Part shown: positions 39,150 to 50,050 of the stretch, one piece after another
How positions within the stretch are numbered: position 1 is the first letter of the stretch
Layout: every line of letters starts with the position of its first letter
Source of the DNA: Alphaproteobacteria bacterium
GTDB taxonomy: Bacteria > Pseudomonadota > Alphaproteobacteria > UBA8366
Reading direction: 5' to 3'
DNA length: 64,000 nucleotides
Assembly (NCBI GenBank): GCA_009377445.1
Contig: WHUA01000004.1
Span: forward strand, 215,630 to 279,629
Made by a program: the position numbers and the translations under genes
Notes under the pieces: model-generated
Seen by the model: only the letters and a program-made list of their open reading frames with translations
Database searches by the model: none
Told to the model about the DNA's origin: nothing

Positions 39150-39258
39150 ACCAGGTAGATTAACCCTTGATGGCCTCCTCGGCCCTATGTAGCAAACAAG
39201 CTCCTCTCATCCACTAGCGTCGCCATTGGGATTGGACAGATCTGAAAGGCAGTTACCG

Positions 39259-40548
39259 ATGACCGAACCAGCAGACCTCGACGTAACTTCAGCGTCCATA
39301 CTGATGGAGAAGGGAAAGTTAACGGCGGAGGCTCTGATGGCTTCATGCCTCGCTCGCGTCGATAAGCGCGAGGACGCGGTACGGGCATGGGCTTATATCG
39401 ACGCTGATCTGGCGATGGCCGCTGCCCGTGCATGTGATCGCGAAACGCGGCGCGGGCCGCTGCATGGCATCCCCATTGGCGTCAAGGACATCGTCGATAC
39501 GTCTGACATGCCAACGACCTATGGCTCGCCCATCTACAACGGTAACCAGCCGGCTGCTGATGCCGCGTGTGTTGCGCTCGCACGAGAGGCAGGGGCCGTT
39601 ATCATGGGAAAGACGGTGTCGACTGAATTTGCCACGCGCCATCCTGGAAAGACCCGAAACCCGCACAACGCCGCGCATACGCCCGGCGGTTCGTCGAGTG
39701 GTTCAGCGGCCGCCGTTGCCGATCACATGGTTCCAGCAGCGTTCGGCACGCAGACAACAGGGTCGGTTATTCGGCCATCTGCCTATTGCGGCATTGTGGG
39801 ATACAAGCCGACATTCGGGAAAATCAACCGGACAGGGGTAAAGCCCCTGTCTGATACAATGGACACGGTCGGACTCCATGCCCGATCTGTCCCGGACATC
39901 GCCCTGATCCTTTCGGTGATTTCCGGACAGTCTTTCCCGGACCTCAAGGTTGTAGCCGAGGAAATGCGCCCCTGGCGCATTGGGATTTGCCGGACTCCAT
40001 ACTGGGACCGCGCCGACGCCGCAACTCATGCGCTCCTCGACCAGGTCGCGGACCGATTGGGGCGTGCTGGCTCTAAAGTCCGGGAGGTTGTTCTGCCAGA
40101 ACCATTTCCGGATGCATTTCATGCCCAAGACGTGATCAACGAGTTCGACACATGGCGGGCGCTCGCATTCGAACGAACACGCCATCCGGAAAAGCTATCA
40201 ACGACGTTGTCTGAGCGACTGGCCCGTGCGGGGCGGCGCAGTGCAGCTGAGTACACCGCTGCGCATAACCTTGCGACCAAGTGTCGCGGACTTGCCGATG
40301 AAATGTACTCGGAATGGGATGTTCTTGTCGTGCCTGCCGCGCCCGGGGAGGCGCCCAACGGATTGGGTTCCACGGGCGACCCAATCTTCAACCAGCTTTG
40401 GACTCTTTTACACGGCCCGGCGGTTACTATACCGGCTGGCCATGGCCCTTCGGGATTACCCTTAGGCATACAGTTGGTTGGCCCCCGCGGTCATGATTTG
40501 CGGGTGCTCGCTTGTGCGAACTGGGCCGCAGATTTTTTGGCATGTTGA
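39259..40548 (+). CDS. amidase (amidase-signature family), copy 1
   Basis: ORF 39226.. begins at a TTG. ATG 39259 gives MTEPADL. LHGIPIGVKD, GGSSSGSAAAVA, GTQTTGSVIRPSAYCGIVGYKPT (Ser-cisSer-Lys triad context). Confidence 0.85.
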   Translation: MTEPADLDVTSASILMEKGKLTAEALMASCLARVDKREDAVRAWAYIDADLAMAAARACDRETRRGPLHGIPIGVKDIVDTSDMPTTYGSPIYNGNQPAADAACVALAREAGAVIMGKTVSTEFATRHPGKTRNPHNAAHTPGGSSSGSAAAVADHMVPAAFGTQTTGSVIRPSAYCGIVGYKPTFGKINRTGVKPLSDTMDTVGLHARSVPDIALILSVISGQSFPDLKVVAEEMRPWRIGICRTPYWDRADAATHALLDQVADRLGRAGSKVREVVLPEPFPDAFHAQDVINEFDTWRALAFERTRHPEKLSTTLSERLARAGRRSAAEYTAAHNLATKCRGLADEMYSEWDVLVVPAAPGEAPNGLGSTGDPIFNQLWTLLHGPAVTIPAGHGPSGLPLGIQLVGPRGHDLRVLACANWAADFLAC

Positions 40549-41823: not shown

Positions 41824-42759
41824 ATGGTAGATACCAAATCCGTCGCTTGGACCGATAGCATGTCAGCTGACAGTGTGGCGGCTGCACAGGCCGGGGAGAT
41901 TCCCATCGGTCAGCTTCGGTCGCGCGGGTACTGGCGCTCCGTTTGGGTGCGCTTGCGCCGTGACAAGGTTTCCGTTGCCTGCGCCGCCGTCCTCATTCTG
42001 ATTGCGCTATCGGCGATTTTCGCCCCCCTGCTGTCGCCGCACGACCCATATCAAGGAAACGTCGTCAAGCGCCTGGCGCCGATCGGCACAGCCGGCTACC
42101 TACTCGGCACCGACGAACTGGGCCGCGATATGCTCTCTCGCTTGCTCTACGGCGGGCGCGTATCGCTCTTCATCGGGCTTTTCCCTGTCTTCTGCGCGCT
42201 CATTGTTGGCGGTACAGCCGGCATCGCCGCCGGTTTCATCGGAGGCCGGACCAACATGGCGATCATGCGCCTTATGGACGTTTTCTATGCGTTCCCGTCC
42301 ATCCTCCTGGCGATTGCGATTTCTGGTGCGCTGGGCGGCGGCTTCTCTAATGTCATCCTGGCACTGGCGCTGATCCTGGTTCCGCCGATCACGCGCGTCG
42401 CCGAAAGTGTGACGACCCAGGTTCGCAGTTACGACTTTGTGGAAGCTGCGCGGGCCAGCGGTGCTGGGACATGGACGATCATCCGTGTGCATGTGCTCAG
42501 CAACGTCCTTGGACCGATATTCATTTATACGACAAGTCTTATAAGCTTCAGCATCATCGTCGCCTCGGGCCTCAGCTTCCTCGGCCTCGGCGTCACGCCC
42601 CCGACGGCAGACTGGGGACTGATGCTGAGCACGCTACGCCAAGCGATCTGGATCAACCCTTATGCCGCGGCTCTTCCAGGTTTGATGATCTTCGTCACGT
42701 CCCTTTCCTTCAATCTGCTCAGCGACGGGCTGCGCAGCGCGATGGATGTGAGACTATGA
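41824..42759 (+). CDS. ABC transporter permease (DppC/OppC-like)
   Basis: 311 aa. ...LLGTDELGRDMLSRLLYG..., ...FVEAARASGAG. Confidence 0.9.
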   Translation: MVDTKSVAWTDSMSADSVAAAQAGEIPIGQLRSRGYWRSVWVRLRRDKVSVACAAVLILIALSAIFAPLLSPHDPYQGNVVKRLAPIGTAGYLLGTDELGRDMLSRLLYGGRVSLFIGLFPVFCALIVGGTAGIAAGFIGGRTNMAIMRLMDVFYAFPSILLAIAISGALGGGFSNVILALALILVPPITRVAESVTTQVRSYDFVEAARASGAGTWTIIRVHVLSNVLGPIFIYTTSLISFSIIVASGLSFLGLGVTPPTADWGLMLSTLRQAIWINPYAAALPGLMIFVTSLSFNLLSDGLRSAMDVRL

Positions 42760-43856
42760 GTGATTGCAGAAAGAACATTCGCCGCGAGCCCGTAACAACC
42801 TGCCCGCCGGCGCCGACGGAGAGCCAACCTTTATTATCTGTGAAGGGGCTGCGCAAATACTTCCCAGTAAAGGGAGGGCTTCTCAAACGGCAGATCGCCG
42901 CCATACAAGCAGTCGACGACGTGTCCTTCGAGGTCCGGCGGGGTGAGGTGCTGGGAATCGTCGGTGAATCCGGGTGTGGCAAGTCGACCACGGCCCGGCT
43001 CCTGATGCGGCTTATCGAACCGGACGCCGGGCAAGTGATCTTTGATGGCAAGGAGGTCGGCATGCGCGACGGCATGACAGTCACCGACCTGCGGCGTCAC
43101 GCTCAGATGGTGTTCCAAGACTCCTATTCCTCGCTCAATCCACGCCTTCCTGTGGAGGATACGATCGCCTTTGGCCCCGTGGTCCACGGCACAGCCAGAA
43201 GCAAGGCGAAGGAACGCGCGCGGTATCTCCTGAACGAAGTCGGGCTAGACCCATCTCGGTTTGGCAGGCGCTACCCGCACGAACTTTCGGGCGGTCAGCG
43301 TCAGCGCATCAACATTGCACGCGCGCTGGCGCTGCAGCCACAGATGGTCTTCCTGGACGAGGCCGTGTCCGCATTGGATAAGTCGGTGGAAGCGCAGGTA
43401 CTCAATCTCCTGCTTGATTTGCGGGAGGAATTCAATCTGACCTACGTCTTCATATCCCACGACCTCAACGTGGTTCAATACATCAGTGATCGCGTGCTTG
43501 TGATGTACCTCGGCAAGGTCGTGGAGGTCGGTCCTATTGGTGATGTGTATAAGGAACCGGCGCATCCCTACACCCACGCGCTGCTGTCTTCCCGTCCGTC
43601 GATGGACCCGGAGGACCGCAAAAAAGAGTCGCCGTTGTCTGGCGATCCGCCGACGCCGATCAATCCGCCGTCGGGCTGCCGCTTCAGAACCCGATGTGCA
43701 TTTGCCGAAGACGTGTGCGCAAGAGCCGTTCCCGCACTCACGCCGATTCGCGCCGACGGCAGTTGGCTGGCGGCCTGTCACATGATTATTCCCGGCTCGG
43801 GCCACAGCAGGGCTGCTGCCATTAATGAGGCAACGACCGGAGGCACGAATGGCTGA
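42756..43856 (+). CDS. ABC transporter ATP-binding protein (DppF/OppF-like)
   Basis: In frame in ORF 42471..43856. ATG 42756 overlaps the permease stop. GESGCGKST, LSGGQRQRINIARAL, C-terminal PPSGCRFRTRC. Confidence 0.9.
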   Translation: MSDCRKNIRREPVTTCPPAPTESQPLLSVKGLRKYFPVKGGLLKRQIAAIQAVDDVSFEVRRGEVLGIVGESGCGKSTTARLLMRLIEPDAGQVIFDGKEVGMRDGMTVTDLRRHAQMVFQDSYSSLNPRLPVEDTIAFGPVVHGTARSKAKERARYLLNEVGLDPSRFGRRYPHELSGGQRQRINIARALALQPQMVFLDEAVSALDKSVEAQVLNLLLDLREEFNLTYVFISHDLNVVQYISDRVLVMYLGKVVEVGPIGDVYKEPAHPYTHALLSSRPSMDPEDRKKESPLSGDPPTPINPPSGCRFRTRCAFAEDVCARAVPALTPIRADGSWLAACHMIIPGSGHSRAAAINEATTGGTNG

Positions 43857-44986: not shown

Positions 44987-46645
44987 ATGCCCAACGCCCA
45001 ACAATCATCGGACACCGACCTGCATTCGTTGACGATTGCCGATGCCTCACGGCTGATCGAGCGCCGGAAGCTGTCACCGGTAGAGCTTACTGAAGCACGG
45101 CTGCGGCGGATCGAAGCCCTCGACCCGCAGCTCGACGCGTTTATCACGCTCACGGCGGAGCGTGCGATCGATGAGGCCCGGAATGCCGAACGTGAGATCG
45201 TGGCAGGCAAATATCGCGGGCCGTTGCACGGCATTCCCTTTGCCCTCAAGGATATCTATTGCACCAAGGGGATTCTGACCACCGGCCATTCCAAGATTTG
45301 CGCTAATTTCGTGCCGAACGAGGATGCGACGACCGTGCGCAAGTTGAGCGAGGCGGGCGGTGTCCTGTTCGGCAAGCTGGCAACGCATGAATTCGCCCAC
45401 GGCGGCCCTTCCTTCGACCTGCCTTGGGCGCCGGCGCGCAACCCCTGGAACCGCGAGCACTTTACCGGCGGATCATCGAGCGGCTCAGGCGCCGCGGTTG
45501 CCGCCGGCTTCGTCATGGGGGCCATGGGCTCGGATACGGGTGGCTCGATTCGCAACCCCGCCGCGCTGTGCGGGCTCGTCGGATTGAAGCCGACCTACGG
45601 CCTCGTGAGCCGGTATGGCATCTATGCCAATTCCTTTACCTATGACCATGCCGGCCCGCTTACATGGAGCGTGGAGGACTGCGCGATCATGATGCAGACG
45701 CTCGCCGGCCACGATGTGTGCGACCCGGCGAGCGCGGACCGGCCCGTGCCTGACTATCGGGCGGATCTGACGAAGGACATCAAAGGCCTGAAGATTGGCG
45801 TCTTGCGTTATTTCTACGAAGAGGACGTGCCGGTTGCCGCCGCCACGAAGCAGGCGCTAGAGGCCGCCTATGACGTACTGAAGTCGTTGGGCGCAATTCT
45901 CGAGGATGTGCGCATCCGGCCGGCTCAGGATTACTACGACGTCAAGATCGTGTCGGCCGAATCCGAGCTCTTCGCCGTCCACGATCGCAATCTGCGCACA
46001 CGTGCGGGCGACTTCGGGGAGGATTTCCTCGGCCGATCGCTCGCTGCAATTTTCGTCCGCGGCGGTGACTATGTCCAGGCAATGCGGGAACGCCGCCGCA
46101 TGGTTGCCGAGATGGCCCCGATCTACGAGAAATACGACCTTCTCCTTACGGCCGCCCCCGGCCCGGCGCCACGCTTCGAGGCTTGGCGTACAATCCACTT
46201 CTGGCAGAAGCCATCGTTGACGACGCCATTCAACGTCACGGGCGGGCCGGCGCTAGTCCAGTGCATCGGCTTCACGAGCGACGGGCTACCGTTGTCGATG
46301 CAATTTGTTGGGCGGCCTTTTGATGACGCCTTGGTGATGCGCGTTGCCCACGCTTATGAACAGGCGACGCCGTGGCGCAAACGCCGGCCGGCGCTCGATC
46401 CGTCTGCTGCATTCTCCGCCGACCTGCCGCCTCTGCCGGCACCGGAAAAGGCGACGATCAGCGAGCGCGAAAGGGACGAAGTTGCGGTCATTTGTCGGCG
46501 TGCCGGCCTCAATCTCAGCGAGCGGGTATTCGAGCAACTGTGCGCGACCGCACCCTACATCGAGGCGATGGTCGGGCGTCTGCGCCGCGACCGCACCTTC
46601 GCCGAAGAGCCAATGAACGTGTTCCAATTTCCCAGCCACGGCTAG
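44987..46645 (+). CDS. amidase (amidase-signature family), copy 2, with ~80-aa C-terminal GatC/AtzG-like extension
   Basis: 552 aa. LHGIPFALKD, GGSSSGSGAAVA, GSDTGGSIRNPAALCGLVGLKPT. Extra tail ...RRAGLNLSERVFEQLCATAPYIEAMVGRLRRDRTFAEEPMNVFQF. Confidence 0.85.
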   Translation: MPNAQQSSDTDLHSLTIADASRLIERRKLSPVELTEARLRRIEALDPQLDAFITLTAERAIDEARNAEREIVAGKYRGPLHGIPFALKDIYCTKGILTTGHSKICANFVPNEDATTVRKLSEAGGVLFGKLATHEFAHGGPSFDLPWAPARNPWNREHFTGGSSSGSGAAVAAGFVMGAMGSDTGGSIRNPAALCGLVGLKPTYGLVSRYGIYANSFTYDHAGPLTWSVEDCAIMMQTLAGHDVCDPASADRPVPDYRADLTKDIKGLKIGVLRYFYEEDVPVAAATKQALEAAYDVLKSLGAILEDVRIRPAQDYYDVKIVSAESELFAVHDRNLRTRAGDFGEDFLGRSLAAIFVRGGDYVQAMRERRRMVAEMAPIYEKYDLLLTAAPGPAPRFEAWRTIHFWQKPSLTTPFNVTGGPALVQCIGFTSDGLPLSMQFVGRPFDDALVMRVAHAYEQATPWRKRRPALDPSAAFSADLPPLPAPEKATISERERDEVAVICRRAGLNLSERVFEQLCATAPYIEAMVGRLRRDRTFAEEPMNVFQFPSHG

Positions 46646-46722
46646 TTCCAGACCATCGCCGCGGCTGCGCCGACGGCGTGAGTCGCGCACGCAAGTAACG
46701 AATGCGACATCAATGAAGGAGT

Positions 46723-48342
46723 ATGGTTATGAATGGAAGTTTTAGACGCCTGACGGTAGGAATCGGCCTCGCAGCGGCGTTTGCCGCATTTTCCAGTTCG
46801 AGCGTTCAAGCGGAAGGAACGCTCACGCTGGGCATGACAGTCGCGGATATCCCGAGCTCTAAGGGGGCCCCAGATCAGGGTGCGGAAGGTATCCGCTGGA
46901 TGGGCTTCACGGTTTATGACTCACTTGTCTACTGGAACCTGAACCAGAGCAAGACCATTCCGGTAATCGTGCCGGCGCTCGCGCACAAATTTTACCCCAA
47001 CCCGGAAAACAACAAAGAATGGATCTTCGAGCTGCGGAAAGACGTGACCTTCCACGACGGCTCCAAATTCAATGCCGATGCGGTAATCTGGAATCTCGAC
47101 AAGCTATTCAAGGAGAAGGCGCCACAGTACGACCTGCAGCAGCGGCGTGCCGTCGCGTGGCGGCTTGCGGGTATAAAGACTTGGCGCAAGATCGATGATT
47201 ACAAGGTCGCTATCGGCGACAATGTGCCGAATGCGTTGATCCCGCATCAAATCGTCTATGTTCACATATCAAGCCCGAAACACTGGGCAGACGTGGGCGG
47301 TTGGGAAGCATTCGCCAAGCATCCTTCGGGCACGGGTCCGTTCAAGGTCGAGGAGATTGTGCCCCGCGAGCGCGCCGTGCTTGTGCGCAATGACAACTAC
47401 TGGGACAAGGACCGCATCCCGAAACTCGACAAGGTGATTCTCTTGCCGATGCCCGAGGCGAGCACGCGAACGGCGGCGATCCTATCCGGGCAGGCTAACT
47501 TTATAGAAGCGCCGTCGCCGGATGCGGTCCCCCGGCTTAAGTCTTCGGGAATGCAAATCATAACCAACCCCTACCCGCATGTTTGGCCATATGTATTGCG
47601 ACTGGCCGGCGAGAATACGCCGATGAAGGATGTACGCGTCCGCAAAGCGCTGAACCTCGCCATAGACCGCGACGCCATTGTCCAGCTGTTGCGGGGAATG
47701 GCTGTTCCGGCCAAGGGCCACGTCCTTCCCGACAGTCCCTGGTTCGGCAATCCCAGTTTCAAGATCGAATACAATCCGGAAAAGGCCAAGGCGCTGCTCA
47801 AGGAAGCCGGCTACGGCCCCGACAAGCCGCTGAAGATCAAATTCATGATCTCGACATCCGGCTCCGGTCAGATGCAGCCGATGCCAATGAACGAGCTCGT
47901 TCAACAGCAGCTGAAAAAGGTCAATGTCGACCTCTCGTTCGAGGTGACCGAGTGGCAAGCGCTGCGCGCCCAACGCGGCAAGGGACCACTTGATCCCGGC
48001 GCACGCGAGATCCACGCTCTCAACAACAGCTTTGGGACTTATGACCCATACAGTGCGTTCGAGCGATTCTTCAGCTGTGACCTGTTGCCGCCAAAGGGTT
48101 TGAACTGGGCGGGCGTTTGCGACGACGAGATACAGGCGCTGATAAAAAAGATCAAAGAGACCTTTGATCCCAAGGAGCAAGACGAGCTCTTGGCAAAGAT
48201 CCACGAGCACGTTGTCGATAACGCATACTGGGTTTGGGTGGTGCACGATGTGAATCCGCGGGCGCTTCGTCCCGAGGTCAAGGGATTCCGACAGGCAAAG
48301 AGCTGGTACCAGGACCTCACCCAGATCTACATCGAAAAGTAG
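46723..48342 (+). CDS. ABC transporter substrate-binding protein (family 5, peptide/nickel type)
   Basis: 539 aa. Signal peptide ...AAFAAFSSSSVQA. ...WIFELRKDVTFHDGSKFNADAVIWN... The ATG at 46729 has better SD spacing (GAAGGAG). Confidence 0.9.
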   Translation: MVMNGSFRRLTVGIGLAAAFAAFSSSSVQAEGTLTLGMTVADIPSSKGAPDQGAEGIRWMGFTVYDSLVYWNLNQSKTIPVIVPALAHKFYPNPENNKEWIFELRKDVTFHDGSKFNADAVIWNLDKLFKEKAPQYDLQQRRAVAWRLAGIKTWRKIDDYKVAIGDNVPNALIPHQIVYVHISSPKHWADVGGWEAFAKHPSGTGPFKVEEIVPRERAVLVRNDNYWDKDRIPKLDKVILLPMPEASTRTAAILSGQANFIEAPSPDAVPRLKSSGMQIITNPYPHVWPYVLRLAGENTPMKDVRVRKALNLAIDRDAIVQLLRGMAVPAKGHVLPDSPWFGNPSFKIEYNPEKAKALLKEAGYGPDKPLKIKFMISTSGSGQMQPMPMNELVQQQLKKVNVDLSFEVTEWQALRAQRGKGPLDPGAREIHALNNSFGTYDPYSAFERFFSCDLLPPKGLNWAGVCDDEIQALIKKIKETFDPKEQDELLAKIHEHVVDNAYWVWVVHDVNPRALRPEVKGFRQAKSWYQDLTQIYIEK

Positions 48343-48422
48343 CCGTTCCGGTTGGCAATGGTGGAAGGCCGCTCCTGGAGGAGCGGCCTTCCGGCCGGCT
48401 CAGCTCGTTGGTGGAGTATGCA

Positions 48423-48629
48423 ATGACGAAAGTATCAGGCGAACTTATCCGCTTGCAAGGAACTCAGCTTCAAGCGAGGACGATTGAACCGGTTCGCGCG
48501 GTGGAGTTGGCGGCGGAACTGGCAGCCATGCACGACGCCGTGTCGAAGGCTGCGGGCGACCTTGGTTTTGATGATGAGCCAAGCGATTTCCAGCAGGCTC
48601 TTTTGCGAAACTCGCGCAAAGAAGGGTAG
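48423..48629 (+). CDS. small (68 aa) GatC/AtzG-like putative amidase partner
   Basis: In frame at the end of ORF 48234..48629. GGTGGAG SD 6 nt before the ATG. Stop is 5 nt before the amidase-3 ATG. ...AAGDLGFDDEPSDFQQAL echoes the EP-x2-F tail of amidase 2. Confidence 0.5.
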   Translation: MTKVSGELIRLQGTQLQARTIEPVRAVELAAELAAMHDAVSKAAGDLGFDDEPSDFQQALLRNSRKEG

Positions 48630-48634
48630 ACGCG

Positions 48635-50050
48635 ATGGCGAACTCCGACGTGTTGGATATGAGCTTGGCAGATGTTGGGGACGCAATCCGGCGGCGTATC
48701 ATTTCTTCCGAGGAAGTCACGCAGGCCTGTATCGAGCGGGCCCAGGCTACGCAATCAACGGTAAACGCGTTCATTTCGTTGGAAGCCGATGAGGCGCTCG
48801 CAACAGCCCGCGCATTGGATGCCGAGTTGAAGCAGGGGAAGATCAGGGGGCCGCTTCACGGCGTGCCACTGGCGCATAAGGACATGTTCTATCGAAAGGG
48901 ACGTGTCGTCACCTGCGGCTCTACAATCCGGCGGGATTTCGTCCCGGATATAACGGCGACCGTTATCGCACGTCTGGAGGAGGCCGGCGCTGTCTATCTC
49001 GGCGGACTCAATATGTCGGAGTTTGCGGGCGGACCCACCGGTCACAACGAGCATTTCGGAGATTGCTGCAATCCCTGGAATCCTCAACATGTCAGCGGTG
49101 GATCTTCCAGCGGTTCGGCAGCGGCCGTGGCCGCCCGCGCAGCGTATGGTGCGCTCGGATCCGATACCGGTGGCTCCATCCGAATACCTGCCGCATGCTG
49201 CGGGGTCGTAGGCCTAAAACCCACCTACGGCCTCATCAGCCGACACGGCGCGATGCCCCGCTCCTGGTCGCTCGATCACATGGGGCCGCTTACGCGCACG
49301 GTGCGCGACTGCGCTCTCATGACCCAGGTCGTCGCCGGCGCCGATCCAACAGACGCGACGACAAATCCCCTGCCCGTGCCCAATTACGAAGCGGCGCTCA
49401 CTCGTGAGGTAAAAGGACTGCGCATAGGCACGCCGGTGAATTACTTCTTCGACGATTGTGAAGGCGAGGCGCGCGCCATATTCGATCAAGCCCTTGAGAT
49501 GCTAGCGGCGCTGGGCGCGAAAGTCGTGAAACTCGAGTTCCCCGCGCCGGTCACCATGGCGCGCATGAACGACACAATTTCGAAGGCGGAGGCCGCGACC
49601 ATACACCGAAAATGGATGGCTGCGCGGCCGGACGACTATGGCCACCATGTCTTCGCCCGTGTCGAAGCGGGCTTCCACATTCCCGCAACCCAGTACATCG
49701 AGGCACTCGCAATGCGAGGCCGATATACTGAGCAGGTATGTAAAGATGTGTTCGGAAATTGCGATGCTTTCCTGGCGCCTGTATTGCCGTTTCCGGCCCC
49801 GCTACGCACGGAGACTGCGTTCGGAAACGCCTCCGACGTGCCGCAACTAATTGCCCGCATGACATACCGGACGCGCCCATTCTGTTATCTTGGCTTGCCG
49901 GCTCTAAGTATCCCTGTTGGATTCACCGCTTCGGGTCTCCCGCTCGGGATGCAACTCGTTGGCCGCCCATTCGACGAGGCGACCCTGTTTGCAATAGGCC
50001 ATGCCTACCAGTCAGAAACAGATTGGCACAAAGTTGGTCCGTCTATTTGA
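48635..50050 (+). CDS. amidase (amidase-signature family), copy 3
   Basis: 471 aa. LHGVPLAHKD, GGSSSGSAAAVA, GSDTGGSIRIPAACCGVVGLKPT. Confidence 0.85.
   Translation: MANSDVLDMSLADVGDAIRRRIISSEEVTQACIERAQATQSTVNAFISLEADEALATARALDAELKQGKIRGPLHGVPLAHKDMFYRKGRVVTCGSTIRRDFVPDITATVIARLEEAGAVYLGGLNMSEFAGGPTGHNEHFGDCCNPWNPQHVSGGSSSGSAAAVAARAAYGALGSDTGGSIRIPAACCGVVGLKPTYGLISRHGAMPRSWSLDHMGPLTRTVRDCALMTQVVAGADPTDATTNPLPVPNYEAALTREVKGLRIGTPVNYFFDDCEGEARAIFDQALEMLAALGAKVVKLEFPAPVTMARMNDTISKAEAATIHRKWMAARPDDYGHHVFARVEAGFHIPATQYIEALAMRGRYTEQVCKDVFGNCDAFLAPVLPFPAPLRTETAFGNASDVPQLIARMTYRTRPFCYLGLPALSIPVGFTASGLPLGMQLVGRPFDEATLFAIGHAYQSETDWHKVGPSI

Follow-up and report, generated by a model that had tools for sequence, protein, structure and literature searches.

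A putative GatC/AtzG-type helper module, fused to one amidase and encoded separately ahead of another, in an alphaproteobacterial gene cluster

A 64,000-nucleotide stretch of alphaproteobacterial DNA (lineage UBA8366; contig WHUA01000004.1, positions 215,630 to 279,629), called the window here, encodes three amidases in a cluster with genes of an ATP-binding cassette (ABC) transporter. Amidase 2 has a C-terminal tail, and amidase 3 is preceded by a small open reading frame (ORF) at 48423–48629. The 68-aa protein encoded by this ORF and residues ~491–552 of amidase 2 are very probably divergent members of the GatC/AtzG superfamily, small non-catalytic subunits that would bind amidases of the GatA/AtzE type. 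In the original prediction, the same GatC/AtzG-like module was proposed to be fused in amidase 2 and free-standing ahead of amidase 3. This core claim is supported by small ORFs in 71 of 80 related loci, by free-standing homologues of the tail, and by profile-to-profile links of 84–94%.

In the known system, AtzG is a non-catalytic protein of 68 residues whose gene is located just upstream of atzE. It forms an obligate heterotetramer with AtzE and is needed for the solubility of AtzE; the AtzG–AtzE pair is thought to be derived from GatC–GatA, and atzG–atzE(–atzH) clusters are widespread (PMC6219798). GatC, like the part of GatF that resembles it, is an extended protein that binds GatA and GatB through its helices and stabilizes GatA (PMC4027206).

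The fused tail and the small gene

Amidase 2 was said to be longer than its paralogues, and this is correct: it has 552 residues, compared with 471 for amidase 3 and ~430–440 for amidase 1. The Pfam Amidase domain spans only residues 33–450 of amidase 2, and about 80–100 residues are located outside. The tail sequence ends with RRAGLNLSERVFEQLCATAPYIEAMVGRLRRDRTFAEEPMNVFQFPSHG. The best 120 of about 8,000 amidase-2 homologues are all 540–561 aa in length and cover 97–100% of the query, and the tail is kept in them. Its consensus is R-D-E-I-A-A-x-C-R-R-A-G-L-T-L-N-E-R-x-F-x-Q-L-C-A-T-A-P-Y-V-E-A-M-x-G-R-L-R-R-D-x2-F-x-E-E-P. The ratio of nonsynonymous to synonymous substitution rates (dN/dS) was calculated by the Nei–Gojobori method between the window and a syntenic relative (locus L001), resulting in 0.24 for the tail and 0.18 for the linker that connects it to the catalytic body. 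An AlphaFold2 model of amidase 2 was built from 72 orthologues, with a predicted template modelling score (pTM) of 0.88. In this model, the tail helices 493–505 and 512–532 form a helix-turn-helix with a predicted local distance difference test score (pLDDT) of 91–96, and the linker 467–492 shows no regular secondary structure (pLDDT 69–78). The amidase-2 tail is a conserved domain under purifying selection.

The small ORF was described as having a good Shine–Dalgarno sequence and as ending 5 nt before the amidase-3 ATG. Both features were borne out, and the Shine–Dalgarno-like GGTGGAG is located 6 nt 5' of the small-ORF ATG. The ORF is also easily missed, as had been suggested, since the ORF list contains only a 131-aa TTG frame (48234–48629) that includes it. 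In the NCBI database, it is already a coding sequence, annotated as a hypothetical protein from an alphaproteobacterial metagenome-assembled genome. The protein is 76% identical to its counterpart in the syntenic relative (loci L001–L005). The dN/dS of the 68 codons is 0.15, whereas that of the 34 in-frame codons upstream of the ATG is 1.19, and the other two frames of the same DNA show values of 0.9–3.0. For comparison, amidase 3 shows 0.11. According to the difference between 0.15 and 1.19, ATG 48423 is the start of the conserved coding unit, and the 102-aa and 131-aa versions are over-extended. The 68-codon ORF is a real gene under purifying selection.

Both modules had been proposed to share a 'D/E-E-P-x2-F' motif. 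The [DE]-E-P part is common to the two, whereas the position of the following Phe differs, being +3 for the small ORF (DEPSDF) but +4 for the tail (EEPMNVF).

The small gene is found together with relatives of amidase 3. Amidase 3 was aligned with its homologues from plasmids, one genome per species was scanned with this alignment, and 80 loci with 48–60% identity were collected. In 71 of these, an ORF of ~65 aa stops right at the amidase start or overlaps it; in a further locus, the 72nd, the sequence is truncated by the end of the contig. Carriers of the small-ORF family include Reyranella and Bradyrhizobium species. The family shows the pattern G-[LV]-x-[LV]-x4-R-A-x2-[LI]-A... L-x-F-[DE]-x-[DE]-P-[AS]-x-F, and these motifs are kept across Alpha-, Beta- and Gammaproteobacteria at 15–45% identity. 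A hidden Markov model (HMM) of the family, from which the window's own sequence was left out, matched only the small ORF (E = 1e-15) among 860 six-frame ORFs of the window. The amidase is also preceded by this small 'hypothetical protein' on four plasmids (Agrobacterium rubi, Azospirillum, Variovorax and Aminobacter). The genes surrounding these pairs are wholly different (hydantoinases, coenzyme A-transferases and flavin oxidoreductase); thus, the small gene and the amidase travel as a two-gene unit. A tblastn search of the small ORF against plasmids gave no match, and word-index searches, in which either the small ORF or the tail was the only query, detected only close orthologues. In two of the amidase-3 homologue loci (L031 and L043), what ends at the amidase start is not a small gene but the C-terminal part of a further amidase; both loci contain tandem amidases and no visible partner.

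The tail also occurs as a separate protein. A profile of the last 62 residues of amidase 2 was searched against 1.84 billion representative proteins, and 263 matches were obtained with E ≤ 1e-3, of which 74 have E ≤ 1e-10. The matches comprise fused amidases, fragments, and many complete free-standing proteins of 64–75 aa, e.g. MAKKPKVVSRAEVAAMAKRAGLRLTKKQLDHLYQAAPHMQSMSDRVKSARPREDEPADVFRFPREIER. Conversely, the only match of an HMM of the free-standing tail homologues among all window ORFs is amidase 2 (E = 3e-28). In all six look-ups with readable flanks (P0277, P0203, P0282, P0237, P0232 and P0265), the free tail homologue is encoded directly upstream of an amidase gene, which it overlaps or from which it is separated by at most 20 nt; for P0191, the flank was ended by the contig end. 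The free tail homologues lie beside two complete amidases with 56% and 49% identity to amidase 2 and beside N-terminal fragments with 43–75% identity, whereas amidase 3 and AtzE are 39% and 34% identical to amidase 2, respectively. As the amidases adjacent to free tail homologues are closer to amidase 2 than amidase 3 and AtzE are, each amidase clade keeps its own helper family.

The opposite gene order was detected by a tblastn search of the tail against plasmids. In pAA02 of the cultured strain Aminobacter aminovorans KCTC 2477, a 64-aa tail homologue is encoded directly downstream of an amidase that is 47% identical to amidase 2, and its start overlaps the amidase stop codon (ATGA). A one-base change in such an overlap would give a C-terminal fusion. 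The most likely origin of the amidase-2 fusion would be an amidase-then-helper pair with an ATGA overlap, as in pAA02, which offers a plausible route. The upstream-split, downstream-split and fused arrangements within one amidase clade form a Rosetta-stone series. The pAA02 amidase itself (L178, NZ_CP015007.1, 1370–3186) is annotated as 541 aa from a TTG codon; its first ~53 residues are unalignable with relatives, and this start is probably over-extended.

Two further proteins are of a different kind. P0013 (97 aa, on a 581-nt contig) has an N-terminus resembling enoyl-CoA hydratase (PF00378) joined to a complete tail module, and could be an assembly chimera or a real rearrangement. P0235 (1323 aa) contains at least nine tandem repeats of ~60 aa (AVQAEMTRLGLTDAADRKLKGG...LRQDPAFQDEAGS) that match the tail profile with E = 6e-9; this is probably a repeat-driven chance match, unrelated to amidases.

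Relationship to AtzG and GatC

The families were compared profile to profile using hhalign. For comparison, alignments were made of 55 AtzG-like proteins, which were taken from metagenome loci in the position upstream of an AtzE relative, and of five GatC proteins from PDB entries. The small-ORF family is linked to the AtzG-like proteins (86.5%, E = 4.5e-6) and to the free tail homologues (91%, E = 1.1e-6). The free tail homologues are linked in turn to the AtzG-like proteins (94%, E = 1.3e-7), to GatC (84%, E = 7.2e-6) and to the fused tails (99.9%, E = 4.7e-32). The comparison of the fused tails with the small-ORF family gave 34–53% (E = 1.4e-4 to 4.4e-4), and that of the AtzG-like proteins with GatC gave 10% (E = 0.003). 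The likeness of the tail to the small ORF exceeds chance, with P = 1.4e-4 for the two families compared directly and P = 1e-6 to 3e-6 by way of the more diverse free tail homologues, against shuffle, reverse and decoy scores of 8–16. The significant alignments are near full length and in one register, in which helix 1, the G-L-x-L turn and helix 2 correspond to each other and EP is aligned on EP. The window small ORF is aligned end to end, residue 1 to residue 1, with the 68-aa AtzG. These profile comparisons suggest that the four families form one connected superfamily with the free tail homologues as its hub, and that the small ORF is connected with GatC only transitively.

An alternative explanation is an origin independent of GatC and AtzG, with both the small protein and the tail being helical hairpins that became associated with amidases. 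The likeness would then come from Ala/Leu-rich amphipathic helices and a short acidic-Pro motif. The identities in the hhalign alignments are only 10–22%, the curated AtzG-like and GatC models give no profile-to-sequence matches, and even the known pair of AtzG-like proteins and GatC reaches only the 10% given above, all of which speaks for such hairpins. However, the real pairs score 33–40, whereas shuffled, reversed and decoy profiles score at most 16. In 100 column shuffles per pair, the score was 8–9 ± 2 with a maximum of 15; reversed profiles scored 7–12.5; and 28 decoy profiles cut from real amidase alignments scored at most 16 with a probability of at most 3.2%. One column shuffle of the small-ORF and fused-tail pair gave an unexplained outlier of 132, which was treated as an artefact, and this pair is not relied on. 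In addition to the full-length alignments with one consistent register across the four families, the modules have the same size (~65 aa), the same gene position, the same tight coupling to the amidase gene, and a GatA/AtzE-like partner. We regard an independent origin as unlikely.

Several results weigh against membership of the GatC/AtzG superfamily and should be set beside these scores. An hmmscan of both segments had been suggested as a check, and it failed to give any match to the Pfam AtzG-like (PF13318) or GatC (PF02686) models at E up to 10, whereas genuine AtzG (pADP-1) matches PF13318 at 36 bits. No NCBIfam model, including HpxX (NF033624), matched either window segment at E up to 10. 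PF13318 matched only one of the 26 free tail homologues, weakly (E = 0.17), and HpxX only one of 48 members of the small-ORF family, also weakly (E = 0.0015). In a Pfam scan, the small-ORF family gave no match, and the GatC model matched neither window segment, nor the small-ORF family, nor the 26 free tail homologues. When AtzG-like and GatC HMMs were run against all six-frame window ORFs, neither segment was picked out. PDB sequences were searched by phmmer and hmmsearch, for which the two segments, a homologue from a plasmid and the profile of the family served as queries; AtzG and GatC were not found, and only chance matches were returned, e.g. ribosomal protein L9 and Chk1. In hhalign itself, the direct comparison of the small-ORF family with GatC is at the noise level (1.6–3%, E = 0.014–0.032), and the low-diversity fused-tail alignment alone gives 27–53% to the other families. 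As for the models, the acidic C-terminal segment of the amidase-2 tail past residue 533 shows a low pLDDT of 37–66. The monomer model of the small protein (helices 2–18, 23–46 and 52–66) is weak, with a pLDDT of 67, and a Foldseek search of this model against the PDB found nothing.

Partner amidases and the presumed role of the module

The catalytic bodies match Pfam PF01425 with E = 2e-101 (amidase 2) and E = 6e-113 (amidase 3). K88, S163 and S187 are invariant among the 72 orthologues of amidase 2, and so are K82, S157 and S181 in the alignment of amidase 3. From the residue spacing of GatA, we take these residues to be the Lys, cis-Ser and Ser of the catalytic triad. The top Foldseek matches of the amidase-2 model are GatA (9a62_A, 4wj3_A and 2df4_A) and AtzE (6c62_A), with GatA structurally the closest, and the nearest sequences of solved structure for both amidases are also GatA and AtzE. 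According to these comparisons, amidases 2 and 3 are amidase-signature enzymes of the GatA/AtzE-like branch. The NCBIfam AtzE equivalog NF006631 has a cut-off of 461 bits; amidase 3 reaches 348 bits, its best NCBIfam match, and amidase 2 reaches 283 bits. Judging from these scores, the two are not AtzE orthologues. Among the tail-bearing homologues of amidase 2, P0178 (510 aa) is without the GGSSSGS signature region, and its sequence suggests that it may be a catalytically dead amidase retaining the helper module.

We presume that each module consists of an N-terminal helix, the G-L-x-L turn, a second helix, and an acidic stretch with [DE]-E-P. If the modules are placed as AtzG is on AtzE and GatC is on GatA, the hairpin of helices would pack against the amidase, and the acidic stretch would follow the amidase surface. 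This packing would stabilize or solubilize the amidase. In the case of amidase 3, the module would be supplied by the separate, closely abutting upstream gene, with the 68-aa protein as the stabilizing small subunit. In the case of amidase 2, it would be supplied in cis, tethered to the C-terminus via the proline-rich linker of ~25 residues. The precedent of the known complexes suggests that the modules may bind physically in a similar geometry and may be required for the amidase to be soluble or active. Conservation, taken with the AtzE/AtzG precedent, likewise suggests that amidases 2 and 3 may be obligate heteromers.

The modules might bind the amidase in another capacity, as regulators, protomer-swapped oligomerization arms or substrate-access lids rather than as folding or solubility factors. 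As modelled, the linker of 25 residues has a length that would let the fused tail extend to an adjacent protomer, and AtzE/AtzG is itself a heterotetramer. On the other hand, the only characterized relatives (AtzG, GatC and GatF) are described as structural stabilizers, and the near-universal co-occurrence with the amidase clade suits an integral subunit better than an optional regulator. Such a role seems quite unlikely to us. That the 68-codon ORF is a chance ORF, or a leader or upstream ORF merely tuning the translation of amidase 3, is extremely improbable: it is short, has no database family and is located inside a longer spurious frame, but its low dN/dS against about 1 upstream and in the other frames, its amino-acid motifs kept across three proteobacterial classes, and its recovery by the family HMM are those of a protein-coding gene.

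The stabilizing-subunit reading can be compared with known systems. AtzG of the 1-carboxybiuret hydrolase AtzE–AtzG (Pseudomonas sp. ADP; PF13318; PDB 6C62) has the same length as the window's 68-aa protein and the same position directly upstream of a GatA-like amidase gene, and the layout of helix, G-[LI]-x-L turn, helix and acidic EP appears to be common to AtzG and the window modules. The window modules differ in that they are not matched by the Pfam model and that one copy is fused to the amidase C-terminus; in addition, the identity of amidases 2 and 3 to AtzE is only 34%, and neither enzyme reaches the cut-offs of the AtzE family. In GatC (GatCAB; PF02686; PDB 2DF4, 3H0L and 4WJ3), residues 3–52 are aligned with the free tail homologues at 84%, including both helices and the conserved EP. 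However, the window modules (62–68 aa) are ~30 residues shorter than GatC (92–104 aa), and they would lack the C-terminal part that contacts GatB. The context differs as well, because the window modules belong to an ABC-transporter catabolic cluster, and no gatB was found in this cluster in the window ORF list. HpxX–HpxY of oxalurate catabolism and the atzG–atzE–atzH clusters are alike in gene arrangement: a small gene of the AtzG-like kind forms a pair with that of an AtzE-like amidase for the catabolism of nitrogen compounds, often near ABC transporters (PMC6219798). Unlike these, the window proteins are unmatched by NCBIfam HpxX, and no AtzH/HpxZ-like gene was found after amidase 3 when one was looked for. 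Likewise, atzH, atzD and atzF were absent among the genes neighbouring amidases 2 and 3. GatC and GatA are also joined in one chain in a fusion polypeptide of Mycobacterium smegmatis (PMC7541841). This fusion is reported to be a mutant recovered by forward genetics that causes mistranslation, whereas the window fusion is natural, C-terminal, and present in more than 100 protein clusters.

The gene cluster and the significance of the module

The features of the cluster are summarized in Table 1. On the plus strand, the order of the genes is amidase 1, two ABC permeases and two ATPases, amidase 2, a substrate-binding protein (SBP_bac_5), the 68-codon ORF and amidase 3. The identities of the ABC and substrate-binding protein genes were taken from the gene calls of the syntenic locus L001, and the syntenic relative has the entire cluster. 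Amidase 1, which is more distantly related (a paralogue with about 31% identity), has neither a free nor a fused helper module; a helper gene ahead of it was looked for and was absent.

Table 1. Positions of the amidases, the putative helper modules and associated elements in the window
Feature	Position	Strand	Remarks
Amidase 1	39226–40548	+	~430–440 aa
Amidase 2, whole gene	44987–46645	+	552 aa
Amidase 2 catalytic body, residues 1–466; amidase-signature enzyme, GatA/AtzE type	44987–46384	+	Pfam PF01425, Foldseek
Pro-rich linker, residues 467–490 (RPALDPSAAFSADLPPLPAPEKAT), connecting the amidase-2 body to the helper module	46385–46456	+	Conserved LPPVPxP pattern
Putative fused GatC/AtzG-type helper module, amidase-2 residues 491–552 plus stop	46457–46645	+	AlphaFold2, dN/dS, profiles
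Amidase-2 tail helix 493–505	46463–46501	+	AlphaFold2; followed by GL-x-L turn
Amidase-2 tail helix 512–532	46520–46582	+	AlphaFold2
Amidase-2 tail E540-E541-P542 motif	46604–46612	+	
ABC-transporter substrate-binding protein gene (SBP_bac_5), separating the two amidase units	46723–48342	+	L001 syntenic gene has PF00496
Shine–Dalgarno-like GGTGGAG	48410–48416	+	6 nt ahead of small-ORF ATG; read from sequence
68-aa free-standing putative helper-subunit gene, ATG 48423	48423–48629	+	NCBI: hypothetical protein GEU87_09940
Small-ORF D51-E52-P53 motif	48573–48581	+	
Amidase 3, 471 aa, presumed partner of the 68-aa protein	48635–50050	+	Pfam PF01425; start 5 nt past small-ORF stop

Between the stop codon of the substrate-binding protein gene and the small ORF, a hairpin is located at 48363–48392, with a GC-rich stem of 13 perfectly paired bp and a loop of 4 nt (GGAAGGCCGCTCC-TGGA-GGAGCGGCCTTCC). 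No T-run is present behind this hairpin, and an 86-nt stretch folds at -43.4 kcal/mol (z = -3.2). The hairpin could stabilize the messenger RNA or act as an attenuator, setting the ratio of the binding protein to the downstream amidase. In the syntenic locus L003 (1–810), a serine recombinase gene (Resolvase/Recombinase/Zn_ribbon_recom) is located directly 5' of amidase 1, and the L001 gene after amidase 3 has no counterpart among the window ORFs past 50050. The cluster of amidases and ABC transporter may be a mobile island. The ORF listed for the first ABC ATPase (42471–43856, 461 aa) is over-extended N-terminally; its initial ~100 residues are of low complexity and overlap the permease gene, and the syntenic L001 gene encodes 366 aa.

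The principle that GatA-like amidases have AtzG or GatC partners is already known, and the case of the window extends it. Three aspects are apparently new: two additional helper families that current Pfam and NCBIfam models do not cover, a natural and widespread C-terminal fusion of amidase and helper, and the occurrence of upstream-split, downstream-split and fused arrangements in one amidase clade. Searches of the full-text literature (DUF4089 and GatC-like, and three of GatC, amidase, fused and AtzG) returned no description of these families, the fusion or the arrangements. The only fusion detected there is the mutant gatC–gatA polypeptide of M. smegmatis (PMC7541841).

The free-standing members are annotated as 'hypothetical protein' or missed, and the amidases are labelled only 'amidase'. 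A broader generalization is plausible but tentative: GatA-like catabolic amidases may generally be two-component enzymes, whose GatC-derived helper has diverged into several families that are missed by Pfam and NCBIfam and are encoded upstream, downstream or as a C-terminal fusion. If this is true, many of the 'amidases' in databases would be incomplete without an unannotated partner of ~65 aa, and the natural fusion would be a guide to single-chain versions. According to the precedent of AtzG and GatC, some amidase-signature enzymes are insoluble or unstable without their tiny partner. When such amidases are expressed in a foreign host for biocatalysis or bioremediation, the small gene should be expressed with them, and the fused form suggests a single-chain design. 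The annotation models of the AtzG-like family could be broadened.

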